A DNA stretch of 64,000 bases from Patescibacteria group bacterium (GTDB taxonomy: Bacteria > Patescibacteriota > WWE3 > JAUXAW01 > JAYEID01): positions 74,917-138,916 of the forward strand of contig JAYEID010000013.1 in the NCBI GenBank assembly GCA_034659915.1. The letters run 5' to 3'. Below are positions 2,488 through 24,408 of the stretch, in pieces. The position numbers and the translations under genes were made by a program. How positions within the stretch are numbered: the stretch's first letter is position 1; every line of letters begins with the position of its first letter. Under the pieces are notes generated by a model that worked only from the letters and a program-made list of their open reading frames with translations, was not told the origin of the DNA and made no database searches.

Positions 2488-2895
2488 ATGTCTAATAAGA
2501 GCAATAACCAACAATTTTATAGGGGTGTAGGTAGAAGGAAAACTTCTACAGCAGTGGTTCGCCTTTTTGACAAAAAGGGAGAAATCTTGGTTAACGGTAT
2601 GCCTATTTCCGATTATTTTTCGGGAGAAAAGGCTAGAAAGAAGTATATGATGCCTTTTGATGCATGTGGAATGACCAATAAGTTTAGCGGTGATATTAGG
2701 GTAAGCGGTGGCGGAACTACAGGACAATTAGATGCGACTGTTCTTGGTATTTCCAGAGCACTTCTAGAATACGATGAAGAGCTCAAGGCTGCTCTCAAGA
2801 AGTATGACCTTCTAACTCGTGATCCGCGAATGAAGGAGAGGAAAAAAGTTTATCATCGGGGTGCACGGCGCAAGCCCCAATTCTCCAAGCGGTAA
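2488..2895 (+). CDS. rpsI: 30S ribosomal protein S9
   Basis: 135 aa ending ...YHRGARRKPQFSKR, the hallmark S9 C-terminus. Confidence 0.9.
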   Translation: MSNKSNNQQFYRGVGRRKTSTAVVRLFDKKGEILVNGMPISDYFSGEKARKKYMMPFDACGMTNKFSGDIRVSGGGTTGQLDATVLGISRALLEYDEELKAALKKYDLLTRDPRMKERKKVYHRGARRKPQFSKR

Positions 2896-3005
2896 CCAAC
2901 GCTAATTTACGCGAACAAAAGAACACGAATCTACGTGAAATGAAGGACGAGGTTTTTGTCACTGATTAAAAATGTTATTCTTGCGTATTCTTTTCTGTGT
3001 TGGAG

Positions 3006-3038
3006 GCTTTCGGTTAAGTGCCGAAAGCTGATTTTGGT
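3006..3038 (+). terminator. Rho-independent terminator after rpsI
   Basis: Perfect 8-bp stem GCTTTCGG/CCGAAAGC with 7-nt loop followed by TGATTTTGGTT. Confidence 0.6.
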
Positions 3039-3227
3039 TGACTTTCACCCCTTTTTATGCTATAAGTTATGTAGTTTCAGACTGCGCCTCTCTTCGAAAT
3101 CCTACTGCAGTTTGACATAAGTTCGGCCCCCATTCAGCGGTCCGGACAGTTTTTTGTTTTAATCGTGAGATAGGGAAACTGTAAGAAGTTCAAGTCTGAG
3201 TATTCATAGTAACAAAGGAGGTTGGAA

Positions 3228-3812
3228 ATGTCGGAAAAGGAAAAAGTTGATGGGTACGAGTACAAACTAGCCCTGGTTTTGGGCCTTGGCGTCTTGATCC
3301 TGCTTCTTGTTGTGGGATCTTCTATGGCACGAGGTTTCCATAATTCGGTTGCGGCGGAACGCTTGAAGGCGGAAGCAGAACGTCTTGAGGCCGAAGCTGC
3401 TAGATGGAAGGGGCGGGCCGAATCTTACAAGGCAGAAGCTTCCTTCTGGGAAGGACGTGCTACTGCTTACAAGAACGAGGCTGAAAAGTGGCGCGGCGTA
3501 GCGGTCTCACTGCAAGCACTAACTGAGCCATTGGGTGCGGCAGTAGCGGTGATTCTTTCCGTTGCTGTTCTAGTTTTTGCTGTCGGTGGCGCAGTTGCTC
3601 TTGTCCGTATTGGCTGGGGGTTCGGTCGCGGTGGCGAAGCACAAATGAAGGCTCGGGCAGGTGCTTTTAGTTCTTCTGGCCAGCACACGACTTGGGATGT
3701 TCTCCCGAGGAAGGCTGAGACTAAGCAGGAGTATGTTGCCCCGCCCGGATCCGCTGTTGCGAAGCGGCTTCGGGAGTTGGGTGTAGATGTTCGGGAGGCT
3801 GGCCATGCCTAG
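3228..3812 (+). CDS. hypothetical membrane protein with coiled-coil segment
   Basis: SD AAAGGAGG 6 nt before ATG 3228 (ORF track opens at TTG 3222); N-terminal TM helix, repeated AERLKAEAERLEAEAARWKGRAESYKAEA heptad-like block, second hydrophobic segment; lies in GC-rich islet. Confidence 0.55.
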   Translation: MSEKEKVDGYEYKLALVLGLGVLILLLVVGSSMARGFHNSVAAERLKAEAERLEAEAARWKGRAESYKAEASFWEGRATAYKNEAEKWRGVAVSLQALTEPLGAAVAVILSVAVLVFAVGGAVALVRIGWGFGRGGEAQMKARAGAFSSSGQHTTWDVLPRKAETKQEYVAPPGSAVAKRLRELGVDVREAGHA

Positions 3813-4832: not shown

Positions 4833-5291
4833 ATGACAGTGGAAAGAGATGTACCCAGAGTTGTAGATGAAATTTTTTGGGAGCTTTTCAAGTACCATCA
4901 GGAGAATGGTGCTAGAGGTTTTATGCCCCCTCCTCCTGAGGAGGCGGAGGAAATCTTGGCAACGGAAATACTTCCACAATTCCCACCAGCAATCCAGGAA
5001 GAGCTCTTGGGGGGTTGTGTTTGTACTCTACCGCCAGATGGGTGTTCCGAAGAGGAGCGTGCGGCCTACCGCACGCTAGGGAGAACAGCTATCTACTATA
5101 CGCTACTTGGGTACCCACCGGTTAATATGTCATTACCGCTGGAAGAAACCTTGTCGTTGTCTCAAGCACCGGGGTGGATGCGCGAAAGGAAACTACCCCC
5201 TGGTTTTGACGGGATGAACTTTGAAGAGCGTTGTTTTATGTTCGGGTTTCTGCAAAATGGCGACCAAGAACAAGACAAAGGAGAGATGTAA
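4833..5291 (+). CDS. hypothetical protein
   Basis: Open frame 4755-5291 (GTG at 4755, ATG at 4833 preceded by AAGGAGG); no recognisable domain; start uncertain. Confidence 0.4.
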   Translation: MTVERDVPRVVDEIFWELFKYHQENGARGFMPPPPEEAEEILATEILPQFPPAIQEELLGGCVCTLPPDGCSEEERAAYRTLGRTAIYYTLLGYPPVNMSLPLEETLSLSQAPGWMRERKLPPGFDGMNFEERCFMFGFLQNGDQEQDKGEM

Positions 5292-9413: not shown

Positions 9414-10487
9414 ATGGCAAATTATTTTTTTGCAAGAACAAAAAGGCGAGTACGTGCTGCTTTTGCAAAAGCACGTTTCCAAGGTTATTTACAAAAGGCA
9501 CATTTTTTGAGGCTTGCTGGTGTATGCTTTCTTCTTGCTTGTACTCTTTTTTCTAGTTCCTCTCCCCTTGTACAGAGTAATGAAATTGAAGATGGAAAAG
9601 GGGGAGAACAATCTCAAAGTTTGGTTGCTGGTGCAAAGGAAAATTCCTTTGAAGCAGCAGAGCCAGAATGGCCAAAATTAAGAGATGATGCGCCGGAATT
9701 TCCAACAGTTTCGGCAAAAGCAGTTTTGGTAAAAGATAGTAAGACAGGAAAGACTTTATACGAAAGAAACTCTACTGAGAGAATTGCTCCTGCTTCCTTG
9801 GTAAAAATAATGACTGCTTTGGTTGGTTTGGATAAGTATTCTTTGGAAGATGAGTTGGTGGTTTCAGAAAGTTGCCTTTCCGGGTTGGAGGGAAAAGCTC
9901 AGATGAATTTGCAAGCGGGGGAGCGTGTTAAAGCGGGTACCCTACTCTACGGCCTTTTATTACAGTCTGCTGCTGATGCTGCTTGTGTCTTGGCTCGGGA
10001 CCCGGAAAACATGCTTGACGACTACCGTGGTAACGAGCAGCTTTTTGTTGAAAATATGAATCAAAAAGCTTGGGAACTAGGGTTACGTAATACTCGGTTC
10101 CAAAATGTTATTGGTGTAGATGAGGAAGAGCAGTATTCGACTGCGGCAGATCTTTTGCATTTAGCTCAGGTTGCGATGGAGAATCCTATTTTTAGAAAGA
10201 TAGTTGGAACAAAGGAAATTAACCTGCATAATGCTGCTAATCCCCCAACCCAGTGGCATTATGTGCAAAATACAAATGAACTGTTGGTACCGGAATTAGA
10301 AGTTACTGGAGTAAAAACAGGAACAACTACCAATGCTGGTGAGTGCTTACTTGTATCTTGGTTATGGAAAATTCGGGAGATTTATGCAGTGCTTTTGGGA
10401 AGTGAAAAAGATCAGCGGTTCGCAGAATCGCGTAAAATTATAGATTGGGTAAACTCTTCGTTTGTAGCTAATCCTAGTCCTCGTTAG
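9414..10487 (+). CDS. serine-type D-Ala-D-Ala carboxypeptidase (PBP5/DacA family)
   Basis: N-terminal hydrophobic anchor, active-site SxxK (ASLVKIM), later LLYGLLLQSAADAA block. Confidence 0.7.
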   Translation: MANYFFARTKRRVRAAFAKARFQGYLQKAHFLRLAGVCFLLACTLFSSSSPLVQSNEIEDGKGGEQSQSLVAGAKENSFEAAEPEWPKLRDDAPEFPTVSAKAVLVKDSKTGKTLYERNSTERIAPASLVKIMTALVGLDKYSLEDELVVSESCLSGLEGKAQMNLQAGERVKAGTLLYGLLLQSAADAACVLARDPENMLDDYRGNEQLFVENMNQKAWELGLRNTRFQNVIGVDEEEQYSTAADLLHLAQVAMENPIFRKIVGTKEINLHNAANPPTQWHYVQNTNELLVPELEVTGVKTGTTTNAGECLLVSWLWKIREIYAVLLGSEKDQRFAESRKIIDWVNSSFVANPSPR

Positions 10488-11616
10488 ACTCTTGCGGTTC
10501 CTGGTTTACCCATTCTTGGGGTATAGCGTTTAGATACAACACAATTTCCCAAGGTTTTTGATTTTTAACTTCAGCTAAGCCTTTGAAAACGTAGATGGGT
10601 GTTAGGTAATTTTGCGCTTGTTTTGATTCAAAATAAGCTAGTTGCATATTTTGAATTCTTATTTTCTCAACTAAGGGTGGAGAGGGGTTTTCGTAAAACC
10701 CGGCTCCTTGAGGTTTGAGATAAACTAGGGCGGCATTTCCAGCTTCTAGATTTTCCCAGGCTTTGCTGGAAGTTAATAAAGGGTAAGTAGAGCCTTCTTC
10801 AGTTTTTATTTTCCAGTTTTGGTATTCAGCTATTGGTACTTGATCAACTACTGAACGGTAAGAGCCACCAGCAACTAGTAGAGTAGTTAATCCTTGTCTA
10901 GGTTTGGGACCCAAGACATCGTAGCTTTTTCCATCCACATTAAGGACTTTGAAAAGATCTACTCGGGTTAGTTGCGCTTGTGATAAACTTTCTACTACGC
11001 TAAATTTCCCGTTATTTATTTGAACAAATGAGACCTCTCTTTTTGCACTTTCTAGTGTTTTGTTTCCTAGGCTAAGCCGGTTAAGAAAATTCTGGGCTGT
11101 ATCTTCAGCAAGTTGCTTAGTGGGCGCGTTGCCTTTTGTGAGTTGTATTTCTAATGTATTGGAGTCGTAAGTAAGGGAAAAAGCTTGGCTTACTATATTC
11201 ATTTCTAGAGTTCGTTTTCCTTCTTCCCAGCGATATTCAGTGGGTGAGATAGCTTTAGGGCTAGAAGTAAATCCCAAACTTTTTGCTAGATCCTCCGCTT
11301 GCAATTCTGTAAGTGGTGTTGTTGGGTTTTTCTCTAAGGGAAATATAGGTAACCGGTCCGGCATAGCTGGTAATCTTGCGGTGGGAGTGTCCAGTTCGTA
11401 CTTCCATTTAGATAAATTAATGTCGCTAGATGGTATTTTTGGTATGCCTATTTTGCCGAAAGCTGTTTCTGGTGCCGGCTTTTTGGGAGGAAAGAAGTGA
11501 CGGTAAATTCGAACTCCCACATTCCAACCTATTCTTCCAATAGTTAGAACTGCTAGAAAAATTATAAAAGCAGCAATGCCGCGTCTTGTAACTTTAGAAA
11601 CTTTGGTTAAACTCAT
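10474..11616 (-). CDS. hypothetical membrane-anchored protein
   Basis: 380 aa with a single N-terminal TM (AAFIIFLAVLTIG); no recognised motif; converges on the dac gene with a 14-nt overlap. Confidence 0.5.
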   Translation of the reverse strand: MSLTKVSKVTRRGIAAFIIFLAVLTIGRIGWNVGVRIYRHFFPPKKPAPETAFGKIGIPKIPSSDINLSKWKYELDTPTARLPAMPDRLPIFPLEKNPTTPLTELQAEDLAKSLGFTSSPKAISPTEYRWEEGKRTLEMNIVSQAFSLTYDSNTLEIQLTKGNAPTKQLAEDTAQNFLNRLSLGNKTLESAKREVSFVQINNGKFSVVESLSQAQLTRVDLFKVLNVDGKSYDVLGPKPRQGLTTLLVAGGSYRSVVDQVPIAEYQNWKIKTEEGSTYPLLTSSKAWENLEAGNAALVYLKPQGAGFYENPSPPLVEKIRIQNMQLAYFESKQAQNYLTPIYVFKGLAEVKNQKPWEIVLYLNAIPQEWVNQEPQESNED

Positions 11617-11906: not shown

Positions 11907-13421
11907 TTGCTTATGCCAAATGATAATTCTTTTGAAAATGTAAGAGTGCGCAGTGCTCCTTCTCCCACTGGCCGACCTCATATTGGTACTGCTTATAACG
12001 CTCTTTTTAATTATGTTTTTGCCCGTAAACACGATGGTAAATTTATTCTTCGTATTGAGGATACAGATCGGTCTCGCTATGATGCTGATTCTGAGCGAGA
12101 GATTATAGATGCTCTTACTTGGTTAGGTTTGGAGCCAAATGAATCTCCTAAAAAAGGGGGAGAGTACGGACCTTACCGGCAGTCGGAACGCTTGGATATC
12201 TATAAAAAATATGTCGAGCAGCTTTTAGATAAAGGTGCAGCTTATTACTGCTTTTGTTCGGAAGAACGCCTAGAGAGAATTAGAGAAAGAGCTAGGCGGG
12301 AAGGTAAGCCTCCCATGTATGATGGACATTGTCGAAGTATTAGCAGGAAAGATGCTGAAAAGAGAATTCAGGAGGGAGAAGAGTATGTGGTTCGCTTAAA
12401 AGTCCCCAAGGAAGGGACTACTAAGTTTCACGACTTGATACGTGGTGAAATTGAGGTTGAAAATCAAGTTATTGATGATCAAGTTCTTTTAAAATCTGAC
12501 GGTTTTCCTACCTATCATTTAGCTAATGTGGTAGATGATCATTTAATGGAGATTAGTCATATTATTCGGGGTGAGGAGTGGCTTTCTTCTGTTCCCAAAC
12601 ACATTTTACTCTACACTGCTTTTGATTGGGCTCCTCCGGTTTATGCACATACTCCGCTGCTTCGCGGTGAGGGCGGTGCTAAACTGGGAAAGCGACACGG
12701 CGCACTTCCTATTTTTGAATACAAGAAAATGGGTATTCTTCCGGAAGCACTTTTAAATTATTTGGCGCTTTTGGGCTGGACTCATCCTCAGGAGAAAGAG
12801 TTTTTTGGTTTGAAAGAAATGATTGATAAGTTTCAACTTGAAGATATGGATGCAACTGCTCCTATCTATGATCCGGATAAGTTAAAATGGTTAAATGGTA
12901 AGTGGATCCGCGCGCTTAGTGTTGAGGAGCTTGCGGAAAGACTTCGGAGTGTTTTTGCAAGAGAAGCGGAAGCCGCCGGGGAAACTTCCGGGGTTTCTGC
13001 AGATCCAACCCCGGAGGTTAAAGAGGCGGCCCAGGAACGATTTTCCGAAATCGTCTCCCTTGTTCAGGACCGCATGGAAACCCTCTGTGATTTTGAGGAA
13101 CTGGCCCGGTTCTTCTTTGAAGCTCCGGAGGTAGACAAAGAACCTCTTGTGGAGCAGGCTCATGGAGATGAAGAAGAAGCAAAAGCTATCTTGGAAGCAG
13201 CAGCAAAGATTATTGAAGAGACAGAATTGGAACACGATGCTTTGGAACAAGCTTTTCGGTCTAAGGCAAAGGAAGAAGGTTGGGGAATGCGGGCAATTTG
13301 TATGACTACCCGAGTAGCAATAACTGGGAAAACAGTCTCCCCCCCACTTTTTGATTGTGTCGCGATCCTCGGCCGCGAAGAAACCCTTACCCGCCTTAAC
13401 AAATCTTTGGAATTACTGTAA
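11907..13421 (+). CDS. gltX: glutamyl-tRNA synthetase
   Basis: VRVRSAPSPTGRPHIGTAYNALFN (HIGH region), WLGLEPNE, KLGKRHG (KMSKS-like); 504 aa. Confidence 0.9.
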   Translation: MLMPNDNSFENVRVRSAPSPTGRPHIGTAYNALFNYVFARKHDGKFILRIEDTDRSRYDADSEREIIDALTWLGLEPNESPKKGGEYGPYRQSERLDIYKKYVEQLLDKGAAYYCFCSEERLERIRERARREGKPPMYDGHCRSISRKDAEKRIQEGEEYVVRLKVPKEGTTKFHDLIRGEIEVENQVIDDQVLLKSDGFPTYHLANVVDDHLMEISHIIRGEEWLSSVPKHILLYTAFDWAPPVYAHTPLLRGEGGAKLGKRHGALPIFEYKKMGILPEALLNYLALLGWTHPQEKEFFGLKEMIDKFQLEDMDATAPIYDPDKLKWLNGKWIRALSVEELAERLRSVFAREAEAAGETSGVSADPTPEVKEAAQERFSEIVSLVQDRMETLCDFEELARFFFEAPEVDKEPLVEQAHGDEEEAKAILEAAAKIIEETELEHDALEQAFRSKAKEEGWGMRAICMTTRVAITGKTVSPPLFDCVAILGREETLTRLNKSLELL

Positions 13422-13431
13422 CAACAGCCCT

Positions 13432-14297
13432 CGCAAAGGTATTACCTTTGATAGAGCTTGTTTCATAGGGTTTTTGATTTTTTTATGAAAAGAAAAACTG
13501 TTTTGGCAGTTGGTGGTATTTATCATATTTTCAATCGTGGGATTGACAAACGTGATATTTTTCTTGATCCAAGTTATTATTCCCGTTTTGTTTCAACTTT
13601 AGAGCATTCTTTAAAGTATAATTATCCTTATAGTTTACTGAAACGCCGGTTGAGAGAAGCTAAATCTTCGGAGGATAGAAAGAATATACTTTTGCAGCTG
13701 GAGACGAAGCGTGTAGAACCCCCGGTGGAAGTACTTTCCTTTTGTTTAATGCCCAATCATTTTCATCTAACTTTAAAACAACTTGTCGAAGACGGTATTA
13801 CTGAGCTTATACGTAGAATTTGCACAGTGTATACAATGTATTTTAATGTGCGGCAAGAGAGAAGAGGAACTCTTTTTGGTGGGGTATTTCGATCAGTTCT
13901 GGTGGAAACTGAAGAACAGCTGATCCACCTTTCTCGTTATCAGCACTTGAACCCCCTCAAGGCCGGAATAACTGAGATATCGAAGTTGGGAGATTATCCC
14001 TGGTCAAGTCTCGCCACTTATTTGGGTAGGGATGATATTCCTTTTGTTAATAGTAGGCCGGTCATGTCTCATTTTAAAGATGCGGAAGGGTATTTAAGGT
14101 TTCTGGAAGCCGAAATTGACGAGTTCGAGCCTCTGCGTTTGGAGGGTATTGCGATAGATGATGACTTCGGTTGGTTCGCCTGTTTTAGGGATTATGAGGA
14201 AGAACGTAAAGAGGCTCTCCGAAAGAGATATATGGAATTGTTGTAATGAAGGCGCTCGCAAAGGTATTACCTTTGATAGCTTTTACCTTTGATAGCT
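13432..14297 (+). mobile_element. IS200/IS605-family-like element: Y1 (HUH) transposase flanked by 25-bp direct repeats
   Basis: Identical CTCGCAAAGGTATTACCTTTGATAG at 13432-13456 and 14255-14279, each containing the palindrome CAAAGGTA-T-TACCTTTG; partial third copy TACCTTTGATAGC at 14284-14296. Confidence 0.65.
13485..14246 (+). CDS. tnpA: IS200/IS605-type (RAYT-like) HUH tyrosine transposase
   Basis: GGIYHIFNRG, HUH motif in LMPNHFHLTL, catalytic Tyr region ICTVYTMYFN, RRGTLFGG block; 254 aa from ATG 13485, longer than the roughly 140-aa canonical IS200 TnpA. Confidence 0.7.
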   Translation: MKRKTVLAVGGIYHIFNRGIDKRDIFLDPSYYSRFVSTLEHSLKYNYPYSLLKRRLREAKSSEDRKNILLQLETKRVEPPVEVLSFCLMPNHFHLTLKQLVEDGITELIRRICTVYTMYFNVRQERRGTLFGGVFRSVLVETEEQLIHLSRYQHLNPLKAGITEISKLGDYPWSSLATYLGRDDIPFVNSRPVMSHFKDAEGYLRFLEAEIDEFEPLRLEGIAIDDDFGWFACFRDYEEERKEALRKRYMELL

Positions 14298-14349
14298 TTA
14301 TTCTGGTCCTAACCTTATACCATGTGATAGACTGAAGTTTAAGCTTTAT

Positions 14350-17300
14350 ATGGTTAACCCTGTCCGTGATTCTAGTTCAATTGAAAAAATTTCCCAGTGG
14401 ATTGATATTTTTCTTCTTTTTGTGTTGGTTATTGCCAACTTGTTATTTCCCCTCTTTGGTCTTTCTGCGCATCTTGTAAGTTTGGTCCGGTTGTTGTTTT
14501 TGCTTTCCTTAGTTCTATTTTTTATATTTGTACGGTTGCCGCTTCTTTTCGTTGAATCGGTTGTGGGTATGCTTCGTTCCCACAAAGATAGAAAGAAGAT
14601 TTGGAGGAGTAGAAAAAATTTTCTTATTAAAAACCTTGTTTTTATTTTGGTTTTTCTTTTTGTGTTGGATTCAGTGGGTGCAAATTCTCTCCACGGCGTA
14701 ATTGGTAGAGAGTTGTTAGGGAGGAAAGGTGATCGTGGTGGAGCAGCTGATAATGGAGGGGAAGCCTACGGGTTGGTAAGGTCCAGCGAAAAAGAAATGT
14801 TTGTTCTGCGGGCAAAGCGTAAAGACTTTAAGTCTGAAGAGGACGTTACCTTTAAGGTAAGTTTTACCGATGCTTTGCCCTCCGCACCGGAAGAAAATGA
14901 GGCGTCAGGTTCTTCCTCCCAGCCCTCCTCGGCAACAACCTCTGCCACTCCCGAAACAGATTCTCCCTCTTCTGTAGATCAATCTGGTTCGGAAGAACCA
15001 ACCACCCAAGATTCTACTCCGGAGGGTACAGAAAGTGCTACTCCGGAGGCAACAATAAGCGCCCAGCCTAGTAATCAGGGGTTGTTGGGAAAAGTATTAG
15101 CGCTTTTGGAAAAATATAATATTTTTGGTTCTGTTAAAGCTCAAAGCAAAGAACCGGATATTGATGTGAAAATTTTTGATGTGGAAGGTGAAGAGACTCA
15201 CTTTCCTATTTCTGTTGAGGCTGATGAATCAGGTAACTTTGAGATAGAGGTAAGTAAGGGTAGAGCGTTTAGACCCGGGAAGTATGAGCTTAAAGTTACC
15301 TTGGTAGATCCGGAAAGTGGTGAAGAGCTTGATTCTATAGAACAAGATTTTACCTGGGGTGTTTTGGCTGTTAATACCAACAAGTCCATTTACCTGCCCC
15401 GGGAAAAAGCAAAATTGCAGATGGCTGTTTTGGATGAAGAAGGGATGATGGAATGTAACGCTAAGCTGCGCTTGGAAATCCAAAATCCGAAATCCGAAAT
15501 TCAAAACCTCTCGACGGAAGAGGGAAGCATTACCGTGAACCCTGAATGCAAGTTGCATGACTTTACTCTGGTGCCGGATTACGAGGCAGAATACCAAGTT
15601 GCCGATTCTGGTGTTTATGAGATGAAACTAACTGCGGAAACAGAAAACGGCACTTATACCATTACCGATTCTTTTGAAGTGCGCAACGAAGTCCCTTTTG
15701 ATGTGGAGAGGGAAACAGCAACCCGTATTTATCCTCCCGAGTCTTACCCCGTTACTTTTTCTATTAAGGTTAACCAAGATTTTACCGGCGTAATTGAGGA
15801 GCGTGTTCCTGCAAGTTTTGAGGTGGAATGTCCCCCTCTTTTTGATGTGGATTCGGGAACTCGTAGCAACAGTTGCCAGATCAAGGAGAAGGACGGCGTC
15901 AAAACAATATCTTGGTCTGTAAGTTGGGCAGAAGGGCAAAGGACAACCTTGTACTATCGTTTCAAGACACCTCTCATATCGCCGCAATTTTACCTTCTGG
16001 GACCTTTAACCTTCCGTAGCCTTGGCGAAGGAGGTCCTTCCACTACTGTTTTTGAAAAAAGCGAGGATGAGCTTGCACCGACGAGCTTCGAAGAAGCGAG
16101 GAGGTGGCAGCTGGCTATTGACGATACGGAAGGCGCCAACAGCCCAAGCAGCGCAGCTGAAGATACATCTGTAGGTGGTTATTCTTGGTCGGGATATACC
16201 AATGTTTATTCTAGTAATGATTCCTATGCTGAGGTTACTTTGGGTAAAGGATATATAAGTTATTATATTAAAGCTACCGGCTTCGGTTTTTCCCTTTCTA
16301 ATTGCGAGTCCATTGATGGGATTTATGTAGAGGTGGAGCGTAAATCTAACGATGCGGCTGATATGGAAGATAATTCAGTACGCCTGGTTAACGGTAGTGG
16401 TACTATTGTTGGCGATGACAAAGCAATAGCTGGTGATTGGCCAACTTCGGATACTTACCAAGGTTACGGTGGTTCTACCGATACGTGGAACGCCAGCTTG
16501 ACTTGTAGTGATGTTACTAATTCTAATTTTGGAGTTGTCTTTTCAGCGCAGAACACTGTATCTACTAAACCACGCGATATTACTGCCTCCGTTGACCACA
16601 TTCGGGTGACCGTTTATTATACTGCTGCCCCAGCTCTTGAACAGAGCCATTACCGTTGGCGCGACGACAGCTACGGTTTAAACACTGACAACGGTTGGCA
16701 GGCAAATGAAGATAACGAGTACAATGGCTTGCCGACAAATACTACCGCCCGTTTACGAATGGAAATTGACAATACCGGTGACGCGGAGGCGAGCAGTTAT
16801 CAGTACCAACTGGAATATGCTGCCCAAAGTGGGGACACTTGCGGCGGCGAAAGTTACACCGCCGTACCGGTTACTGCTTCCACAGAACCTTTTGAGATGG
16901 TTACTTCTAGCCAATACACGGACGGTGACGCTATTACTTCGGGATTTCTGACAGGTTCCGGCACTTGGGCTGATGGTGAGGGTGTGGCAGACCCCTCTAA
17001 TAAAACAGCAAGCCATAGCTTAGCTTATGGTGACTACACAGAATTTGAATATGCAATTCAGGCAACTAGTGATGCAGGCAGTGGACAGACCTACTGTTTC
17101 CGGTTAACAAATGATGGCTCGATTGAGAATTTTACTTATACTAGATACGCTGAAGCGACCATTCAAGGAGTTAGCGGTTCTTTGGGCAAATCTGCAGACG
17201 GATGGGCGGGGGCAATTCCAGTTTATATGGATGTTATTGGTTATGATTCCAGTTATTACGCCCGGGCTAAAGTGGATACGCCTGCTGCGGAAACCTACTA

Positions 17301-19977
17301 CTTTGATATGACCTGGGATAGCGGCAACAGCCGTTTTGAAGGGACAATTTATCCAGGCTCTTATTATTGCAACGGTTGTGCTGATCCAAATACCGGAACT
17401 TTTACGGTTACTGTTCAGATCGATGACGATTCCGGGTTTGGGTCAATTAATGACTCAGACAGTACGGGTAGTTTTGATACTTATATTACCCGCCGGAAAA
17501 GTTCTTTGGACACCTCTGAAAACTATACCGATATCAAACCGGTTTGGAACACCGACCATTGGGATATTGAGGTGGCTGACTTTGCCCTTTATTGCTCTTC
17601 CAGCCAAACCAATGCGGTTATTGCCGTCCCTTTTCATCCCACTACAGCTAGTATTTCTAACATTGCTGTTAGCTATGATGGTACAGCTGTGTCCCAGGGT
17701 AGTGCGGAATCAACCACTGACGCTTGGTGGTGGGACAGCGATTACCACACCTTGTTTTTAATGTTTGGTTCCTGCAGCACGACCATTGTGGATGTGGACA
17801 TTAGCTTTGATTCGGATACGGATCTTTGGGCAACGCGGTTCGACCGGGTGCAAACAGCTGACATGGGCAACCGCGAATTTTATAACGGTCTTTTTATTGG
17901 TAACCAATACTGGACAACCAGCGTGTATGGCGGCGGTCACGAAGGCGCCGGTGAGCAGGCGGAATCGCGGGCAAAACCCAGCGGGGGAGATGAGTTAACT
18001 GTTGATTGTATGGAACGTGTGGGTGTTTGGGCTGACGATGACGGGGACCCCAACACCATCGATGACCTGAACTGCGACGACTCCGGTTATTATGAATGTA
18101 ACGTTAAGTGGGCGCAGGACGAGTGGGATGATTGGCCCCTTTCGGAAGATAACGATTCGATTGTGGTGGAAACCAACGAGGACCAGACCGCAAGCACCGG
18201 TTGGCGGCAGTATTTGGATAATTCTATTAGTGTTGAACGGATCCTAACTTTTTATTCCGGCAAAATATATATTGAAAACAATTACACTATAACCAATAAC
18301 GATTCCAGTGCACATGATCTCGACCTTGTTCATGAAAGAGAACAATGGCTTGCTGGAGACTGCGCTATAAACGATAGAGGTCGTTATTATAGTGATACTT
18401 CGGATCGAACTATGGACACGAGGGTAGATATGTCTACGTTTTCTAATCCTTGGCTGACGAGTTACGACAATTACGACACCGGTTATTATGCAAGCATGGG
18501 ATTTATTTTTGAGGAAGGTGCGGAAGCGGATTACGGTATTTTTACTGACCATGCCTTTATTACTAACACTTCGGCTGAGTGGCCGGTGGTAATTGGTTCA
18601 GAAGGGCACACTGAGGCAGCTAATACCGGTTTTGAATTAAGTAACAATTCTGTTGCGGCAGGGAACAGTGTGGTTTTAAATTATTGGCAAACCCTGTATA
18701 TAGGCAGTTCTTGGGATGATGTTGCGTCTGCCTTGGATGATGCTTGTGCAGAGCTTAATGATGCTAACACCGCACCCAACAGCCCCACTTCTCTGACGCA
18801 AAAGAAGACCGACGACACAGTTCTTTCCACGGGCGACTGGACCAACGAATCTTCGGTAAAATTCACGGCAACTGTGGATGACCCCGACGATTCGGACACA
18901 CTCTACCTCTGTGTAGAAAAAGACCCCACCGGCACTGCTTTTTCTGATACCGAAGATCAGTGCGGGGAGGGGGTTTCCTACTCCGGAACAGCGGTGGAAG
19001 CAACTGTTACTATTTCTTCGCAGACCGACGATACTGAGTATCACTGGCAGGCACGGGTTAAGGACGAAGCGGGAGAATATTCATCCTGGGTTTCTTACGG
19101 GGGGAACGCGGATCCTAGTGATACAGATTACGCTATTGACACCACAGCCCCCACCGGAGGGACAGTTTACGACGGAACGGAGGCGGGGGTGGATAAGGAT
19201 TTTAACGATGAATCTCTTTCCCAGCTTTCTGCCAACTGGAGCGGGTTTGATGCTAGTGTATCCGGTTTGGATTATTACGAATATTCAATTGGTACTACCC
19301 AAGGAGGAATCGATGTTGTGGGCTGGACCAATAACGGCACATCAACTTCGGTAACTGAACAAGATTTAACTTTGCAAACCTCACAACCTTATTACTTTAA
19401 TGTGCGGGCAGTGGATAATGCAGGCAGTACCCAGTCTCCCGCAATTTCCTCCGACGGCCAGCTGGTGAGTCCCAGTATTTCTTTTAGCGTTAGCCCTTCT
19501 ACAGTTTCCTTTGATGCTTTGAACGCTTCCAACAGTTATACCGATACGGAAACCGTTACTTTGGAAACTTCCACCAACGCCTATAATGGTTATGTTGTTC
19601 GTGGTTTTGCCACCGATTATTTGCGTTCCGCTTCCGGCAACGAGACAGTTCCCGATTTTGACGGGGGAACTTACGAGGAGCCGGACGGCTGGCTTACTAG
19701 TGACCGCGGGTTTGGTTACCATTCTTCGGATGAATCTATTCAAGGAAGTAATATTTTTAATAGCGACCCTTGCCCCGGTGGCAACAGCCCGCCCTGTTAT
19801 GCGCCTTTTTCCCAAACGGCTCCCGGTGATATTGTTGCCGACCACACCGCCAATGTTACCGGCAGTCCTATTTCCAGCGAACAGTTTACGCTTACCTATA
19901 AGGTGAAAACCGACAGTATCCAGGCTTCGTCAACTTACATTACAACTATTATTTACACTATAACTGCTCAGTATTAA
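14350..19977 (+). CDS. giant (1875 aa) membrane-anchored Ser/Thr/Asp-rich cell-surface protein
   Basis: Several N-terminal TM helices, a Ser/Thr/Pro/Glu-rich linker (aa 180-240) and a long beta-rich, low-Cys extracellular region. The last roughly 160 aa (SISFSVSPSTVSFDA...SSTYITTIIYTITAQY) are homologous to the C-terminus of the 21149-22186 protein. Confidence 0.7.
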   Translation: MVNPVRDSSSIEKISQWIDIFLLFVLVIANLLFPLFGLSAHLVSLVRLLFLLSLVLFFIFVRLPLLFVESVVGMLRSHKDRKKIWRSRKNFLIKNLVFILVFLFVLDSVGANSLHGVIGRELLGRKGDRGGAADNGGEAYGLVRSSEKEMFVLRAKRKDFKSEEDVTFKVSFTDALPSAPEENEASGSSSQPSSATTSATPETDSPSSVDQSGSEEPTTQDSTPEGTESATPEATISAQPSNQGLLGKVLALLEKYNIFGSVKAQSKEPDIDVKIFDVEGEETHFPISVEADESGNFEIEVSKGRAFRPGKYELKVTLVDPESGEELDSIEQDFTWGVLAVNTNKSIYLPREKAKLQMAVLDEEGMMECNAKLRLEIQNPKSEIQNLSTEEGSITVNPECKLHDFTLVPDYEAEYQVADSGVYEMKLTAETENGTYTITDSFEVRNEVPFDVERETATRIYPPESYPVTFSIKVNQDFTGVIEERVPASFEVECPPLFDVDSGTRSNSCQIKEKDGVKTISWSVSWAEGQRTTLYYRFKTPLISPQFYLLGPLTFRSLGEGGPSTTVFEKSEDELAPTSFEEARRWQLAIDDTEGANSPSSAAEDTSVGGYSWSGYTNVYSSNDSYAEVTLGKGYISYYIKATGFGFSLSNCESIDGIYVEVERKSNDAADMEDNSVRLVNGSGTIVGDDKAIAGDWPTSDTYQGYGGSTDTWNASLTCSDVTNSNFGVVFSAQNTVSTKPRDITASVDHIRVTVYYTAAPALEQSHYRWRDDSYGLNTDNGWQANEDNEYNGLPTNTTARLRMEIDNTGDAEASSYQYQLEYAAQSGDTCGGESYTAVPVTASTEPFEMVTSSQYTDGDAITSGFLTGSGTWADGEGVADPSNKTASHSLAYGDYTEFEYAIQATSDAGSGQTYCFRLTNDGSIENFTYTRYAEATIQGVSGSLGKSADGWAGAIPVYMDVIGYDSSYYARAKVDTPAAETYYFDMTWDSGNSRFEGTIYPGSYYCNGCADPNTGTFTVTVQIDDDSGFGSINDSDSTGSFDTYITRRKSSLDTSENYTDIKPVWNTDHWDIEVADFALYCSSSQTNAVIAVPFHPTTASISNIAVSYDGTAVSQGSAESTTDAWWWDSDYHTLFLMFGSCSTTIVDVDISFDSDTDLWATRFDRVQTADMGNREFYNGLFIGNQYWTTSVYGGGHEGAGEQAESRAKPSGGDELTVDCMERVGVWADDDGDPNTIDDLNCDDSGYYECNVKWAQDEWDDWPLSEDNDSIVVETNEDQTASTGWRQYLDNSISVERILTFYSGKIYIENNYTITNNDSSAHDLDLVHEREQWLAGDCAINDRGRYYSDTSDRTMDTRVDMSTFSNPWLTSYDNYDTGYYASMGFIFEEGAEADYGIFTDHAFITNTSAEWPVVIGSEGHTEAANTGFELSNNSVAAGNSVVLNYWQTLYIGSSWDDVASALDDACAELNDANTAPNSPTSLTQKKTDDTVLSTGDWTNESSVKFTATVDDPDDSDTLYLCVEKDPTGTAFSDTEDQCGEGVSYSGTAVEATVTISSQTDDTEYHWQARVKDEAGEYSSWVSYGGNADPSDTDYAIDTTAPTGGTVYDGTEAGVDKDFNDESLSQLSANWSGFDASVSGLDYYEYSIGTTQGGIDVVGWTNNGTSTSVTEQDLTLQTSQPYYFNVRAVDNAGSTQSPAISSDGQLVSPSISFSVSPSTVSFDALNASNSYTDTETVTLETSTNAYNGYVVRGFATDYLRSASGNETVPDFDGGTYEEPDGWLTSDRGFGYHSSDESIQGSNIFNSDPCPGGNSPPCYAPFSQTAPGDIVADHTANVTGSPISSEQFTLTYKVKTDSIQASSTYITTIIYTITAQY

Positions 19978-19994
19978 AATAGTGCCAAATTAAA

Positions 19995-21095
19995 ATGAAA
20001 AATTTGCTCATTTCCAAAAATAAAAACAAAGCTAAAAAGTTAAAGAGATTAGGTATTTGCGCTGGGTTTTTGTTAGTTTTGGTAGTTTTCTTTTTTTCGG
20101 GTTCCGTTTTGCAGGTGGGGGCGGCTGATGGTGCAGAGGAAACAACTGCTTCTGCGGGGGCTTCGGGAAATATGCCTCTTATGCAGTTAGAAAGTGCTGA
20201 GCCGGAAAAAGCAGCTTTGGGTGTTTCCCCGGTAATTATTGAACTTATTTTGGAACGGGGTCGAAGCACAGAAAAGAAAATAACTGTTTTTAACATAACC
20301 AACTTCCCCCTACCTGTTAAGGGAAACACGGAGAGCTTTTTTGTGTTGGAAGATGTGGAACCGGGTGCCGAAGAAATTTTTGATGTTTCTTCTTGGGTAA
20401 GTATTGAACCCGCAGATTTCATTCTCCAACCCCGTGAGCACAAAGAGGTTAAAATATCAATTGATGTTCCCCCGGAAGCCGAGCCGGGAGGGCATTATGC
20501 TTCTATTTATTTTCAACCGCTGATTCCGGTGGAAGTTCTTTCCCCGCAGACCGCTTTTCTGACTGCGCGGGTAGGTACTTTAGGGTTCTTTGTGGTTCAA
20601 GGTGAAATTGTGGAGAAAGCGGAGCTGGGTGAATTGGAGGTAAGAACGCTTCAGCAGTTTGGACCTGTAGATTTTAAGTTCCCGATTAGAAATGCGGGAA
20701 ATGTGCATCTTTTGCCTGCGGGGGAAGTGATAATAACTGGTTTTTTGGGGAATGAAAAAGAAAAACTAGAGATATCTCCCAGCGCAATTTTGCCGCAGAC
20801 AACCAAGGAAATAACTGCTCAGTGGGATAAGAAATATCTTTTTGGTAAGTTTTCTGTAGAGGTAAATATTTCTTACGGGAGCGAGAATAAAAAATTGGTG
20901 GCCGGACCGGTAGATTTTTGGGTTGTCCCTTGGCTCTCACTCTTAATTGGGGGCAGCTTGTTGACAGCTGTCTTGGTTTTCTGCATAATGTTTAGGAGAC
21001 GGGTGGGTTTGGCGCTGACTGCGCTTTTCAACCCGGAAAAACTTAGTGAAAAGGAACGGAGGGGAATTAACCTTCTCCCGCGTAAGGATAATTAA
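19995..21095 (+). CDS. membrane-anchored surface protein, paralogue A (possibly DUF916/DUF3324-like)
   Basis: Signal/TM at N-terminus, blocks VSPVIIEL, VSSWVSIEP, EPGGHYASIYFQP, RNAGNVHLLPAGEV, C-terminal TM (WLSLLIGGSLLTAVLVFCIMF) followed by RRR; paralogous to 22389-23318. Confidence 0.6.
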   Translation: MKNLLISKNKNKAKKLKRLGICAGFLLVLVVFFFSGSVLQVGAADGAEETTASAGASGNMPLMQLESAEPEKAALGVSPVIIELILERGRSTEKKITVFNITNFPLPVKGNTESFFVLEDVEPGAEEIFDVSSWVSIEPADFILQPREHKEVKISIDVPPEAEPGGHYASIYFQPLIPVEVLSPQTAFLTARVGTLGFFVVQGEIVEKAELGELEVRTLQQFGPVDFKFPIRNAGNVHLLPAGEVIITGFLGNEKEKLEISPSAILPQTTKEITAQWDKKYLFGKFSVEVNISYGSENKKLVAGPVDFWVVPWLSLLIGGSLLTAVLVFCIMFRRRVGLALTALFNPEKLSEKERRGINLLPRKDN

Positions 21096-21148
21096 TTTTA
21101 GAAATTACCCAATTTTTGAAAAGGGGGTGAAACAGAATAAGTAACAAT

Positions 21149-22186
21149 ATGCAATTTGCACGCAAATTTAAGAAACTCTTGCCTATTTTTATACTAGGAG
21201 GATTATTAGCGTGGATGAGAGTAAGCACGGTTCATGCGGCAACGCTGACCGGAGGTTCGGTAAGCTTGAGCGATTCCCGCCCGGATCAAACTAGCGTGGA
21301 ATATGATTCCGAGTGGAGTAATGTAACCCAATCAAACATTAAATGTATTAAGATCCAGTTTAATACTGCTGCTGACGGAAGTGGGAGTGTTCCTTTGACT
21401 TCTACTGGTGGTACTGTGGATACCACTAATACGGATTATGTTGACGTAAGTACGTGGACCACTGATTTCACAACTAACGGTACGGTTACAATAACAGACT
21501 CAACGGGTGCCGCACCGACCAGTTCCTCTAACCTGACAATTGCTTTGGACGGAATTACCAACGGTTCCACTGCGGATACCGGTTATTATTATATCCTTAA
21601 CACCTATGACAATACGGATTGTTCCACGAGTCCTGTGGACGAAGGTACAGTAACCTTTATCTATACCGAGGGGCAGTCTGTATCTATGACTGTGGACCCG
21701 TCCATTAGTTTCTCCCTTGCTTCTGTGGGGTCGGGTGTATTAGTGAACGGGGCAACTACTACTGAGGCTAGCACTACAACTACCATTCCTTTGGGAACGG
21801 TTACAGATACCACCAATGGAATTACAGCGCACGACCTTACGGTAAGCACCAATGCGGAAAACGGTTACACGGTTTACGCCCGCTATACCGGTCAGCTGAC
21901 TTACAGCACGGCTACAATTGACGATCATACGGGAGATCATACTACGCCTACGGAAATGTCTGTGGGGACTGAGGCGTTTGGTTACACTACCGAAGATACT
22001 GACCTTTCTCAGTTTCAGCCAAACAAGTGGGCTGGGTTTACCAGTACTAATGCTTCAGTGGCCACCAATACGACGGCGGCTTCCAGTGAAACAACCCGTA
22101 TCGGTTACCAAGCGGGAATTAGCAGCACAACGGAGGCGGGGACTTACACAACTACTGTTATCTTGACTTGCACGCCCACCTACTAA
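21149..22186 (+). CDS. secreted Thr-rich beta-strand protein sharing the giant protein's C-terminal domain (SCPU/WxL-like fold guess)
   Basis: Signal peptide MQFARKFKKLLPIFILGGLLAWMRVSTVHA; residues about 185-345 (PSISFSLASVG...NAENGYTVYARYTGQL...AGTYTTTVILTCTPTY) align block-by-block with the giant protein's C-terminus. Confidence 0.6.
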   Translation: MQFARKFKKLLPIFILGGLLAWMRVSTVHAATLTGGSVSLSDSRPDQTSVEYDSEWSNVTQSNIKCIKIQFNTAADGSGSVPLTSTGGTVDTTNTDYVDVSTWTTDFTTNGTVTITDSTGAAPTSSSNLTIALDGITNGSTADTGYYYILNTYDNTDCSTSPVDEGTVTFIYTEGQSVSMTVDPSISFSLASVGSGVLVNGATTTEASTTTTIPLGTVTDTTNGITAHDLTVSTNAENGYTVYARYTGQLTYSTATIDDHTGDHTTPTEMSVGTEAFGYTTEDTDLSQFQPNKWAGFTSTNASVATNTTAASSETTRIGYQAGISSTTEAGTYTTTVILTCTPTY

Positions 22187-22388
22187 AAACGCTCGTTGGA
22201 GAGTTTTTAGAGGTGGCGGCAAGTTGGGGGGTGGGGGCTTTGTTGTTTATTTGAATTGCCGGTAGGCACCAAAGCGGCGCCCCACAAGCAGGCTTGTGAC
22301 TTCCTGCGAAGGGCGGGGGTGTTTTAGAGGCACCCCTTTGTTCCTTGCCTTGAATAATAAAGCTTGAATTAATTTTTTGATTTGTGTT

Positions 22389-23318
22389 ATGAAACTTAAA
22401 CTGGTTACAATTGTAATTTTTTCTTTCTTCTTGTTTTTCCCTTTCCAAAGAGCGCGGGCGCAGGAAATGGTTACTCTTAGTGTTTCGCCGCCGGTTTTTG
22501 AGCTTACAGCTAATCCGGGGGATACGCTCAAGAATGTGATTCGGGTGAGTAACCCCCACGAGGAGCCGCTTAAAGTTTCGGTGGATACCCGCAATTTTGT
22601 GGCGGTGGGTGAGGTTGGCTCGGTGGGGCTTACGGAGGAAGAAACGCCCTATTCTTTAGCTTCCTGGATAAGTGTAACCCCTACTCAGGTTGAAATCCCC
22701 GGCGAATCCAGCTGGTATTTTAATGTTGAAACAAATGTTCCCTTGAACGCAGAACCCGGCGGTCATTTTGGTTCCGTGGTTTTTAAAACAGGCGGCGGCG
22801 CTGTCCAGCAGACCGGTGCTGCAGTTACTCAGGAGTTGGGTTCTTTGTTTTTGCTGAGGGTTTCGGGAAAGGTAACTGAAGACGGTCGGGTGGAAAGCTT
22901 TTCAGCAGAGAAAAAGTTTTGGGAATACGGTCCTATCCGGTTTGATCTGCGGGTGGAGAACAACGGCAATGTGCATATCAAACCGCAGGGGAAAATAGCA
23001 ATTACTAACATGTTAGGAAAAGAGGTGGCTGAGGTGGATGTTAAGCCGCAAAATGTTTTACCTGATGCGGTCCGCAAGTTTTCACCAACCTGGGAAAAAG
23101 AAATTCTTTTTGGAAAATACACAGCAACCGCATCTCTGGTTTACGGCAGTGATAGCGAGGTTTTAAATGCAACTACGAGTTTCTATGCTTTCCCCTACAA
23201 AGTAGGGGGTGCGGTTTTGGCTGGCCTAATTGTTATTGGCTTTTTGCTCTACCGTGGTCGAAGAAGAATAGCCTTAGCCCTACGGATACTGTTTGGGAAA
23301 CATGAAGACAAGGCCTAA
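22389..23318 (+). CDS. membrane-anchored surface protein, paralogue B
   Basis: Blocks VSPPVFELTANPGD, LASWISVTP, EPGGHFGSVVFKT, ENNGNVHIKPQGKI, C-terminal TM then RGRRR; ATG 22389 (ORF track opens at TTG 22377). Confidence 0.6.
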   Translation: MKLKLVTIVIFSFFLFFPFQRARAQEMVTLSVSPPVFELTANPGDTLKNVIRVSNPHEEPLKVSVDTRNFVAVGEVGSVGLTEEETPYSLASWISVTPTQVEIPGESSWYFNVETNVPLNAEPGGHFGSVVFKTGGGAVQQTGAAVTQELGSLFLLRVSGKVTEDGRVESFSAEKKFWEYGPIRFDLRVENNGNVHIKPQGKIAITNMLGKEVAEVDVKPQNVLPDAVRKFSPTWEKEILFGKYTATASLVYGSDSEVLNATTSFYAFPYKVGGAVLAGLIVIGFLLYRGRRRIALALRILFGKHEDKA

Positions 23319-23333
23319 TATGAAAAAAAGATT

Positions 23334-24392
23334 ATGGAAGAACTTTATAGCTTACAGAGAATTTCTCCCTCCTTCTTAGGTACAACTAAGATTGTTCTCT
23401 TTAATATCCTCTTTGTTTTTTTGTTCTTTTTAATCTCTCTTGCTTCTCCAAAACTTGTCTGTGCAGGAACAGAATTGAATGTTACTATGCAGGTTCACGA
23501 TACAACCTTTATTGTTACAGGCAGGACTAGTCCTAATGCTAAGGTAACAGTGCTGGAAGACAATTCTGTAATTGGTACTACCCTTGCGGGCGGTGATGGT
23601 AGCTTTTCCAAAGAATTTCCGGCGCAGGATACTGGCGTTCATAACTACGGTTTTTATTCTACTGATAGCGAAGGTAGAGATACCTCCACTATTAATTACT
23701 CGGTTTCTTTGTTTTCTCATACGGTGACCACACTTTCTAATCTAATCTTGCCCCCCACCTATGAACTTAGCGCTACAGAAATTACTGCCGACGAAGACCT
23801 TCTGGTGGAAGGTTCGGCAGTGCCCAGTTCCCAAGTTGTTTTGTATTTTTCCAAGGCTGGAAGTTCGGAAATTTCCTCGCATACTGTGAAGGCTGGGAGT
23901 ACTGGAAGGTGGGAATATTCTCTGGGTTTGGATTCTTTGGGCGAAGGAACATACGAAATTTATGGTCAAGTAACAACTGTTGATGGTTATCAAAGCGATG
24001 CGGGCAGCGTGCTTGGTTTCGAAGTTACGGCTCCTCCCGAAGAGGAGGAGGAGGAAGAAGAGCTAGTTTCTCCGCCTGTCTCGGTTGAGGAAGAAGTAGC
24101 GCCATCTCCCACTTTAGTTGAGGAAGAAGAGGAGGAAGGTCCAAAGCTTCCTGATTTTATGAGTGTTTTTGATCCAGATGGAGACGGCAGGATTAGCAAA
24201 AGCGAAGTTTTTGATGCAGTAAAGTCTTGGGTTCACAGTTGGCGAGATTATTTGTCTGATTTAGTTGCTGATGAACAATTGCAAGAGCCTCCGTTGGAGA
24301 AGAGAACGTGTGATTTGAATAATGATGGAAAATGTAACTTGCGTGACTTTTCTATACTACTGTACTATATAGAAAGAGAGGAGGGTGGGTAA
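23334..24392 (+). CDS. secreted protein with Ig-like region, poly-Glu linkers and C-terminal EF-hand/dockerin-like Ca-binding pair
   Basis: N-terminal hydrophobic signal; EEEEEEEE and EEEEEEG acidic tracts; the C-terminal loops DPDGDGRISKSE (canonical DxDxDGxIxxxE) and DLNNDGKCNLRD, each followed by a helix-forming segment, are spaced as in the two segments of a dockerin. Confidence 0.6.
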   Translation: MEELYSLQRISPSFLGTTKIVLFNILFVFLFFLISLASPKLVCAGTELNVTMQVHDTTFIVTGRTSPNAKVTVLEDNSVIGTTLAGGDGSFSKEFPAQDTGVHNYGFYSTDSEGRDTSTINYSVSLFSHTVTTLSNLILPPTYELSATEITADEDLLVEGSAVPSSQVVLYFSKAGSSEISSHTVKAGSTGRWEYSLGLDSLGEGTYEIYGQVTTVDGYQSDAGSVLGFEVTAPPEEEEEEEELVSPPVSVEEEVAPSPTLVEEEEEEGPKLPDFMSVFDPDGDGRISKSEVFDAVKSWVHSWRDYLSDLVADEQLQEPPLEKRTCDLNNDGKCNLRDFSILLYYIEREEGG

Positions 24393-24408
24393 TACTGCCA
24401 GATTCATT

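Follow-up and report, generated by a model that had tools for sequence, protein, structure and literature searches.

Does the single HUH transposase-like gene that lies between gltX and a variable surface locus in a Patescibacteria (CPR) genome, bracketed by two identical hairpins, belong to a mobile insertion sequence, or is it a resident gene with hairpins of its own? An initial annotation of a 64,000-nt stretch of one contig (here called the window, whose numbering is used throughout) had described the gene as IS200/IS605-like, encoding about 254 aa, and had placed the element exactly at the boundary of the surface-protein locus, to whose acquisition it might have contributed.

The gene, an ORF of 253 aa, is the only one between the gltX stop and an ORF of 1875 aa (Table 1). 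On its left, gltX closes a block that is conserved among relatives (class-II tRNA synthetase, S11 peptidase, a hypothetical gene and gltX), and on its right the 1875-aa ORF opens the variable downstream 'surface' locus; that ORF also follows the HUH gene in L002, a relative at 96% identity, and is missing after gltX in the relatives L094 and L096. The HUH gene starts at an ATG, an upstream TTG at 13458 being unused by homologues, and adjoins the synteny break after gltX, as had been claimed. For a part in the acquisition of the surface locus we find no support, the connection being one of adjacency to the break. The sequence here weakly suggests that the + strand is the lagging-strand template, which would expose the + strand hairpins; GC skew is positive across most of 9-22 kb.

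Table 1. Features of the gltX-HUH locus in window coordinates
Feature	Coordinates	Strand	Basis or content
gltX (glutamate-tRNA ligase; context gene)	11907..13421	+	TAA stop at 13419-13421
Left hairpin module	13398..13454	+	5' extension 13398-13429, containing the last gltX codons and TAA stop; exact 25-nt imperfect palindrome CTCGCAAAGGTATTACCTTTGATAG at 13430-13454
Class-2 (RAYT / TnpA_REP-type) Y1 HUH endonuclease gene, 253 aa	13485..14246	+	ORF, motifs, fold
Right hairpin module	14223..14279	+	5' extension 14223-14254, encoding the last residues and stop of the HUH protein; exact 25-nt palindrome at 14255-14279
Perfect 16-bp tandem duplication TTACCTTTGATAGCTT, 2.1 copies	14267..14299	+	Right hairpin 3' arm and tail; TRF
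1875-aa ORF (context)	14350..19977	+	Hydrophobic N-terminal segment; no Pfam match

The hairpin module in the window

The 64 kb contain two exact copies of the flanking repeat CTCGCAAAGGTATTACCTTTGATAG and no more, both on the + strand in direct orientation, which confirms the identical 25-bp flanks first described. None of 100 shuffles in a control matched it, even at 3 mismatches, no further copy of the module was found in the window with up to 5 mismatches allowed, and a search across the window for other repeated hairpins returned none besides this pair. Each copy begins 8 nt past a stop codon, and the left one lies 31-55 nt 5' of the HUH start codon. The repeat does contain a palindrome, with a core of 8+1+8 nt that forms a 7-bp stem and a 3-nt loop rather than the 8-bp stem initially proposed, and with arms that extend to 12 nt across a 2-nt internal mismatch; as ssDNA the hairpin has a free energy of about -7 kcal/mol (z = -4.1). 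Its foot reads CTCG on the + strand and CTAT on the - strand, and the canonical 5' GT[AG]G is not present at the hairpin foot in the window; atypical feet have also been reported for TnpA_Y1 subclasses 2.6 and 3.

The direct repeat exceeds the palindrome, continuing for another 32 nt on its 5' side to give 57 nt at 81% identity, and this similarity runs into the last codons and stops of both gltX (..LELL*) and the HUH gene (..MELL*). Alignment of modules from the window, L002, L003, L098 and L005 revealed a common 5' extension, (G)GAAtT-r-Y-TGT-r-r followed by about 8 nt before the palindrome, which in the form GAATTrYTGTAA-N8 is common to the left module of the window, L003, the two L005 copies that stand apart from an HUH gene, and L098. 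We considered whether the module had donated the C-terminus of gltX, but this is disfavored by L094, which is without the element and yet has a gltX ending similarly in ..AQDLLR*, and the gltX end is therefore probably native. Its likeness to the ..MELL* codons of the module may reflect microhomology at insertion, or chance.

The partial third copy noted downstream is real (14281-14296), and is the product of a perfect 16-bp tandem duplication (100% match by TRF). It is missing from L002, in which the paired-module layout is otherwise kept, and duplications of the 3' arm arose independently in the second L005 copy, L091 and L024, with an 8-unit array in L019.

The HUH protein and its relatives

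The HUH motif and the catalytic tyrosine, both recognized initially, are present as H92/H94 in MPNHFHL and Y152 in RYQHLNP, and in an alignment of 27 sequences H92, H94, Y152, H154, N156, P157 and the WSS motif at residues 173-175 (W173-S-S) are invariant. The tyrosine motif is of the form Y-x-x-x-N-P (Y152-Q-H-L-N156-P157); since Y...NP marks class 2 (TnpA_REP/RAYT) in the scheme of Quentin et al. 2018 (PMC6006769) and Y...Q marks the IS200 class 1.1, the protein belongs to class 2, as a Y1 HUH enzyme of the RAYT / TnpA_REP type and not an IS200-type TnpA. Beyond the core it carries a C-terminal extension specific to the CPR family, with a nearly invariant IDDDFGWF and a terminal helix, and the same 27-sequence alignment shows its C-terminal ...YMELL* to be native to the family.

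The profile searches give weak signals that nevertheless agree in direction, and the structure search places the protein likewise. The Pfam model PF01797 (Y1_Tnp) scores 21.1 bits against a gathering cut-off of 23, and most close homologues carry a precomputed match to it. The sole NCBIfam match is NF047646 REP_Tyr_transpos at 46.3 bits, under the equivalog cut-off of 80, and by this score the protein is a distant relative of REP_Tyr_transpos and not an equivalog. A phmmer search of PDB sequences with the protein found no match; 4er8 was reached only by profile search (E = 0.0086, with the HUH, Y..NP and WSS/FST motifs aligned) and by fold. An AlphaFold2 model (pLDDT 90.4) had as its best Foldseek match in the PDB 4er8_A, the complex of E. 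coli TnpA_REP with a REP hairpin (E = 3.7e-6), followed by the TnpA proteins of IS608, ISDra2 and IS200; 4er8, 2vjv, 2xma and 2a6m all matched with probability 1.00. Together the alignment and the model show the catalytic motifs and the predicted fold to be intact, and they bear out both the assignment to the Y1 HUH family and the initial view, in keeping with the Y...NP motif, the 4er8 match and the sub-threshold REP_Tyr_transpos match, that the protein stands nearer to REP-associated tyrosine transposases than to the 140-150-aa IS200 TnpA.

A word-indexed search returned about 2,650 homologues, and all those with a named source are from Patescibacteria/CPR taxa; most homologue clusters occur on just 1-3 contigs. 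An exhaustive profile search gave 1,682 clusters at 50% identity (E <= 1e-30), and a scan of viral contigs with the family profile found no relative. Further members of the 253-aa subfamily adjoin envelope or glycosylation loci, generally variable regions.

Cognate hairpins across the family and at the gltX site

We examined the flanks of the gene in 80 metagenomic homologue loci (33-51% identity, mostly of a sister subfamily of 215-235 aa) and, in addition, in loci of the window's own 253-aa subfamily, scoring a hairpin pair wherever the two flanks of one gene gave an ungapped local score of at least 15. Such pairs were found at 52 of 79 homologous CPR genes when a gene's own flanks were compared, and at 0 of 316 when flanks from mismatched loci were compared, so that the hairpin sequence tracks each gene copy and not the neighboring genes. 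The palindromes lie typically about 25-100 nt 5' of the start codon and 1-30 nt 3' of the stop, and their sequence is specific to the locus (examples are GAGGTTGAACCTC, AAGGTCAGACCTT, CACGGGTTGAACCCGTG, TATCTAGAGGCAGCCTCTAGATA, CTAGATAAACGCATTGCGTTTATCTAG and CTATCAAAAGCTTAGCTTTTGATAG); common to them across loci is the apex GGT-W-N-W-ACC, below which the basal stems differ from one another by compensatory changes. The pairs are direct at about 38 loci and inverted at about 22. Paired hairpins recur in the window's own subfamily (L086, L088, L091, L098), and in the sister subfamily in-frame copies of the flanking hairpin also occur inside the ORF, at 16 of 53 loci; neither the window gene nor its 253-aa subfamily has such an internal copy. 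Judged from these flanks, the hairpin pair of the window follows a family-wide rule and is no local accident. Diverged paralogues, several within 10 kb, were seen at L041, L040, L031 and L081.

The initial annotation had also proposed a search for REP-like dispersion of the repeat, which we did not find in the window. The HUH gene has one copy in 64 kb, and across the family there are 8 extra hairpin copies outside genes in 390 kb. Two copies of the window hairpin were found in L005, which is from the same MAG as L094 (GltX 68% identical to that of the window); both have the 5' extension, one being exact over 23 nt and the other having 2 changes, and they bracket a 600-bp segment that holds a small GIY-YIG ORF. 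No homologue of the HUH gene was detected by tblastn (E < 1e-5) in the 8-kb stretch analyzed around them, and therefore at least one relative apparently has the module by itself, as a REP-like orphan. An exact search with the hairpin 20-mer of 185,579 species genomes, among which the window's genome is apparently not included, gave two loci, the L005 MAG and L004 (Bacteroidetes); the latter was rejected as a true module and treated as a probable chance match, because it lies within apparently unrelated sequence and about 1 chance hit is expected. Dispersion would thus amount to two orphan modules in one related genome and none in the window, and on these counts (0 further copies in 64 kb, 8 in 390 kb) the high-copy sense of 'REP-associated' does not appear to fit.

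The comparison of insertion sites that had been proposed was informative. In L003, whose HUH protein is 74% identical, the order gltX-hairpin-gene is retained, and the block CCCTCGCAAAGGTATTACCTTTGA is unchanged, with 24 of 24 hairpin nucleotides identical. Third-codon-position identity between the two is 0.48, giving a chance of 0.48^24, or about 2e-8, that 24 nt stay unchanged, and the hairpin is therefore not neutral. Synonymous sites are saturated between the window and L003 (pS 0.76), dN is 0.164 for the HUH gene and 0.193 for gltX, and against the closer relative L002 the HUH gene has a dN/dS of 0.20. These sequence comparisons show the gene and its hairpin to have co-diverged with gltX under purifying selection.

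Three more distant relatives (L093, L094 and L096, GltX 62-69% identical) retain the block upstream, but after gltX have neither the HUH gene nor the hairpin; the contigs of L094 and L096 continue past gltX, with downstream genes that differ from those of the window. The retained order in L003 and the absence in these relatives point to entry of the unit behind gltX in an ancestor shared by the lineages of the window and L003, and the insertion does not appear to be recent. In the MAG CAZOPS, from among the same 62-69% relatives, a 61% homologue lies at a different place, with a tRNA gene on one side and a rhomboid gene on the other, and this homologue carries its own hairpin pair; over deeper time the unit would seem to relocate or to be re-acquired.

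Competing readings and the proposed role of the unit

The first alternative is that the element is an autonomous and still mobile insertion sequence of IS200/IS605 style, in which hairpin, gene and hairpin move jointly by single-strand 'peel and paste', with guide and cleavage sequences in the conserved 5' extension. The initial annotation had regarded identical direct ends as atypical for this family, but the premise was wrong, since similar same-strand subterminal hairpins at both ends are the normal architecture of IS608 and ISDra2. The window element shares this arrangement in a unit of about 0.85 kb, as well as the Y1 HUH fold, structural likeness to the IS608 and ISDra2 TnpA and a conserved sequence of about 20-25 nt 5' of the hairpin foot, comparable to the left end of IS608, where cleavage occurs 19 nt 5' of the hairpin. 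Homologues occupy unrelated genomic contexts, with diverged paralogues within 10 kb of one another at the four loci named above, and the site is empty in L093, L094 and L096. On the other hand, the tyrosine motif is that of class 2 and not the Y...Q of class 1.1 (IS200, IS608, ISDra2), the protein has 253 aa and an extra conserved C-terminal domain where TnpA of this family has about 150 aa, and there is no tnpB. The gene is single in 64 kb, and the near-identical multiple copies typical of IS200/IS605 were seen neither there nor among the homologue clusters, which occur on 1-3 contigs. Moreover, the unit has kept one site through synonymous saturation, evolving in a housekeeping-like manner no faster than gltX, and the inverted hairpins at about 22 of 60 family loci are a misfit to the strand-specific ends of IS200/IS605. 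We therefore consider a still mobile element unlikely, if the best of the alternatives.

It is also conceivable, but distinctly improbable, that the enzyme is idle or the gene a relic, and that the hairpins are kept for a host function, as operator, stabilizer of mRNA 3' ends or weak terminator, and are not substrates for DNA cleavage. Their location 8 nt past stop codons would suit such a role, the left hairpin is in a possible operator position before the start codon, a consensus scan called the right copy terminator-like, and in E. coli the stability of mRNA is known to be influenced by REPs (background cited in PMC3733652, PMC3479197). However, the hairpin has a short, AT-rich stem, the left copy is not followed by a T-run, and L047 has a separate, canonical terminator beyond its right hairpin, and we therefore rejected the hairpin, or the repeat of which it is part, as a terminator. 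An Rfam scan of 12000-16000 at E <= 1 gave nothing relevant. The invariance of all the catalytic residues together with purifying selection argues against a relic, hairpins with a host function would not be expected to be specific to the gene copy rather than to its neighbors, and a role at transcript ends leaves the orphan modules and the in-frame copies of the sister subfamily unexplained.

That a recent duplication of the gltX terminator region made both repeats around an unrelated gene, in line with the 'recently duplicated target' of the initial annotation, can practically be dismissed: although the copies are 100% identical and their similarity reaches the 3' ends of both ORFs, the pairs are family-wide, recurring in most of 79 independent homologous loci, the hairpin was already 3' of gltX before the window and L003 lineages split, across saturated synonymous divergence, in relatives that lack the HUH gene the sequence behind gltX contains no such hairpin, and the ...YMELL* end of the protein belongs to its family.

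The reading that we favor, and hold to be probable, is that of a minimal REPtron-like unit, in which an inherited and selected class-2 Y1 HUH gene is combined with two direct cognate hairpin modules of about 50 nt. From the co-occurrence of gene and hairpin we infer that the window protein would bind and cleave its hairpin. By analogy with E. coli TnpA_REP and IS608 TnpA (PMC3333891, PMC3479197), binding would take place on single-stranded DNA, such as that of the lagging-strand template, and cleavage and rejoining beside the hairpin would proceed via a 5'-phosphotyrosine link at Y152; this cutting and joining activity might copy or homogenize modules, and on rare occasions relocate modules or the whole unit.

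The nearest known system is the REPtron of E. coli TnpA_REP (YafM/RayT, PDB 4ER8; Quentin et al. 2018, PMC6006769; Ton-Hoang et al. 2012, PMC3333891). Common to the two are the HUH motif and single tyrosine in Y...NP, the SS motif after the core, a single gene copy (here in 64 kb), vertical inheritance, purifying selection, and a gene bracketed by co-varying, cognate imperfect palindromes. The window protein differs from that of E. coli in being about 90 aa longer, with the C-terminal extension, and the unit differs from the classical REPtron in that the foot is without GT[AG]G, the modules are direct where classical REPs are inverted, and high-copy dispersed REPs or REPINs are not seen in the 64-kb window. 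The host, too, sets it apart from the published RAYT classes, CPR taxa being unmentioned by Quentin et al. 2018 (PMC6006769). In the literature searched, no paper describes RAYT/REP-type systems from CPR; the sole related mention, in a 2026 preprint, is a K07491 hit in an archaeon. What is known is the paired-hairpin REPtron arrangement; what sets this unit apart is the host clade, the C-terminal domain, the foot without GT[AG]G, the direct modules and the very low repeat number.

Within class 2, two published subclasses bear comparison. Subclass 2.1, which corresponds to the group 1 RAYTs of Bertels, or TIRYTs, has a median length of about 238 aa, low copy number and a low frequency of flanking 16-mers (PMC6006769 Table 1; PMC5581495), and the motifs NH[YF]H / FQ / Y[IV]HLNP / SS (Quentin et al. 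2018, PMC6006769). Judged by these published motifs only, the window protein resembles subclass 2.1 in NH[YF]H, F(E/Q) in place of WQ, Y-x-HLNP, the SS tail and a length of about 240-250 aa. Members of the subclass are reportedly without REP-like hairpins, some having terminal inverted repeats and HTH or DnaA_C-like tails (PMC6006769), whereas in the CPR family cognate hairpins are usual, and the tail of the window protein matches no Pfam model. In subclass 2.4, from Cyanobacteria and Bacteroidetes, REPs are inserted in frame inside tnpA_REP, as hairpins are in the CPR sister subfamily of 215-235 aa; in contrast to subclass 2.4, the sister-subfamily copies are placed about 25-30 aa ahead of HUH and about 8-10 aa beyond Y..NP, and the window gene itself has none.

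A bolder reading, which we put forward only tentatively, is that the CPR hold a large undescribed clade of RAYT-like Y1 HUH enzymes in which each gene actively homogenizes its own hairpin module at defined positions. These would be the two flanks and, for genes of the sister subfamily, also a pair of in-frame sites within the gene's own coding sequence, and the module of the window would also supply the last codons and stop region of the essential neighbor gltX. If true, such enzyme-driven, site-directed copying or replacement of modules would amount to self-directed ssDNA editing in nearly repeat-free genomes, and would be neither classical REP proliferation nor IS transposition.

When domesticated bacterial transposases are discussed, RAYT/REP systems are the textbook example, and the window enzyme is a relative of those in E. 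coli and Pseudomonas. To our knowledge RAYT/REP systems have been characterized almost only in Proteobacteria, Cyanobacteria and Bacteroidetes, and we know of no established benefit to the host. The window presents RAYT logic in the streamlined genome of an ultra-small bacterium from a little-studied group, the CPR, as a selected, single-copy Y1 HUH gene with co-evolving hairpins and a repeat found twice in 64 kb. If so low a repeat number holds genome-wide, a large REP population cannot explain the selection on the enzyme, and the unit would provide a stripped-down model for what RAYT-like enzymes do for the cell. For annotation, the rule that follows is that a 'transposase' call of this kind in Patescibacteria should not be taken to indicate that a gene moved recently or that an island ends there.

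In-frame hairpins within genes of the sister subfamily

Among 53 genes of the 215-235-aa sister subfamily, sixteen (those of L047, L034 and 14 other CPR loci) carry one or two internal, in-frame copies of their own flanking hairpin, at two conserved sites, one ~25-30 aa before the HUH motif and the other ~8-10 aa past Y..NP. Base-by-base reading of two loci, L034 and L047, shows the copy at the second site to be inverted in both. Given that the hairpin sequence differs between loci, the internal peptide that it encodes differs accordingly, with ..IEVEPRY.. and ..YRGSTSID.. as examples. The sole precedent for in-gene hairpins that we found in the literature is subclass 2.4, in which the internal sites lie at other positions than those of the CPR sister subfamily (Quentin et al. 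2018, PMC6006769).

Hairpin copies, 3'-arm duplications and an enclosed ORF in the window and in homologous or related CPR loci
Locus	Feature	Position	Strand	Remark
L047	Hairpin copies	2741/2957/3253/3470		gene 2780-3469
L034	Hairpin copies	9961/10176/10473/10691		gene 10004-10690
Window	3'-arm + tail duplication	14267-14299
L005	3'-arm + tail duplication	~1600-1625
L091	3'-arm + tail duplication	~3400-3420
L024	3'-arm + tail duplication
L019	Array of eight 17-nt hairpin units	948-1083
L005	84-aa GIY-YIG ORF	979-1233	-	within bracketed ~600 bp

Bracketed passengers, orphan modules and clustered paralogues

Three cognate hairpins occur in L088, at 9920, 10768 and 11470. The third comes after a gene for a GNAT acetyltransferase that lies downstream of the HUH gene, so that the set brackets the HUH gene together with a passenger gene. 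At L005, a related MAG locus (CAYXRZ010000010.1), the window's hairpin module occurs as two orphan copies within 960-1625, with ~600 bp enclosed between them. A second repeated hairpin of this locus, TTCTACACCCCGGAGGTGTAGAA (at ~896, 1437 and 1492), is similar to those flanking family members in L008, L026 and L052.

Diverged family paralogues are clustered on some CPR contigs, with three in 10 kb in L041 and two each in L040, L031 and L081; every paralogue in L031 and L040 has its own distinct hairpin pair, as do only some in L041 and L081. A 52% homologue in L086 (7009-10634), together with its pair of hairpins, lies between two ABC2 permease genes and an ABC ATPase gene, which look like a single transporter operon.

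Neighborhood of the window gene and its L003 orthologue

A 1875-aa ORF without a Pfam match opens the window's "surface" locus (14350-25452). A number of other ORFs there also lack annotation, and one ORF gives Big_6, EF-hand and dockerin-like matches. The GC content of the locus (0.45-0.47) is slightly above that of most of the remaining window (typical 4-kb blocks ~0.40-0.44).

In the 74% orthologue of L003, an in-frame TAG at codon 238 (5218-5220) removes the C-terminal helix, and the codons 3' of it read on as ..KDRKEQLRQQYMEML*. The TAG may stem from a recent nonsense mutation or from an error in sequencing, or the truncation may be tolerated.

Tandem duplication of the hairpin 3' arm

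In several loci the 3' arm of the hairpin and its tail are tandemly duplicated, a change that has recurred independently and that may have arisen through slippage at the hairpin or be a footprint left by the enzyme.
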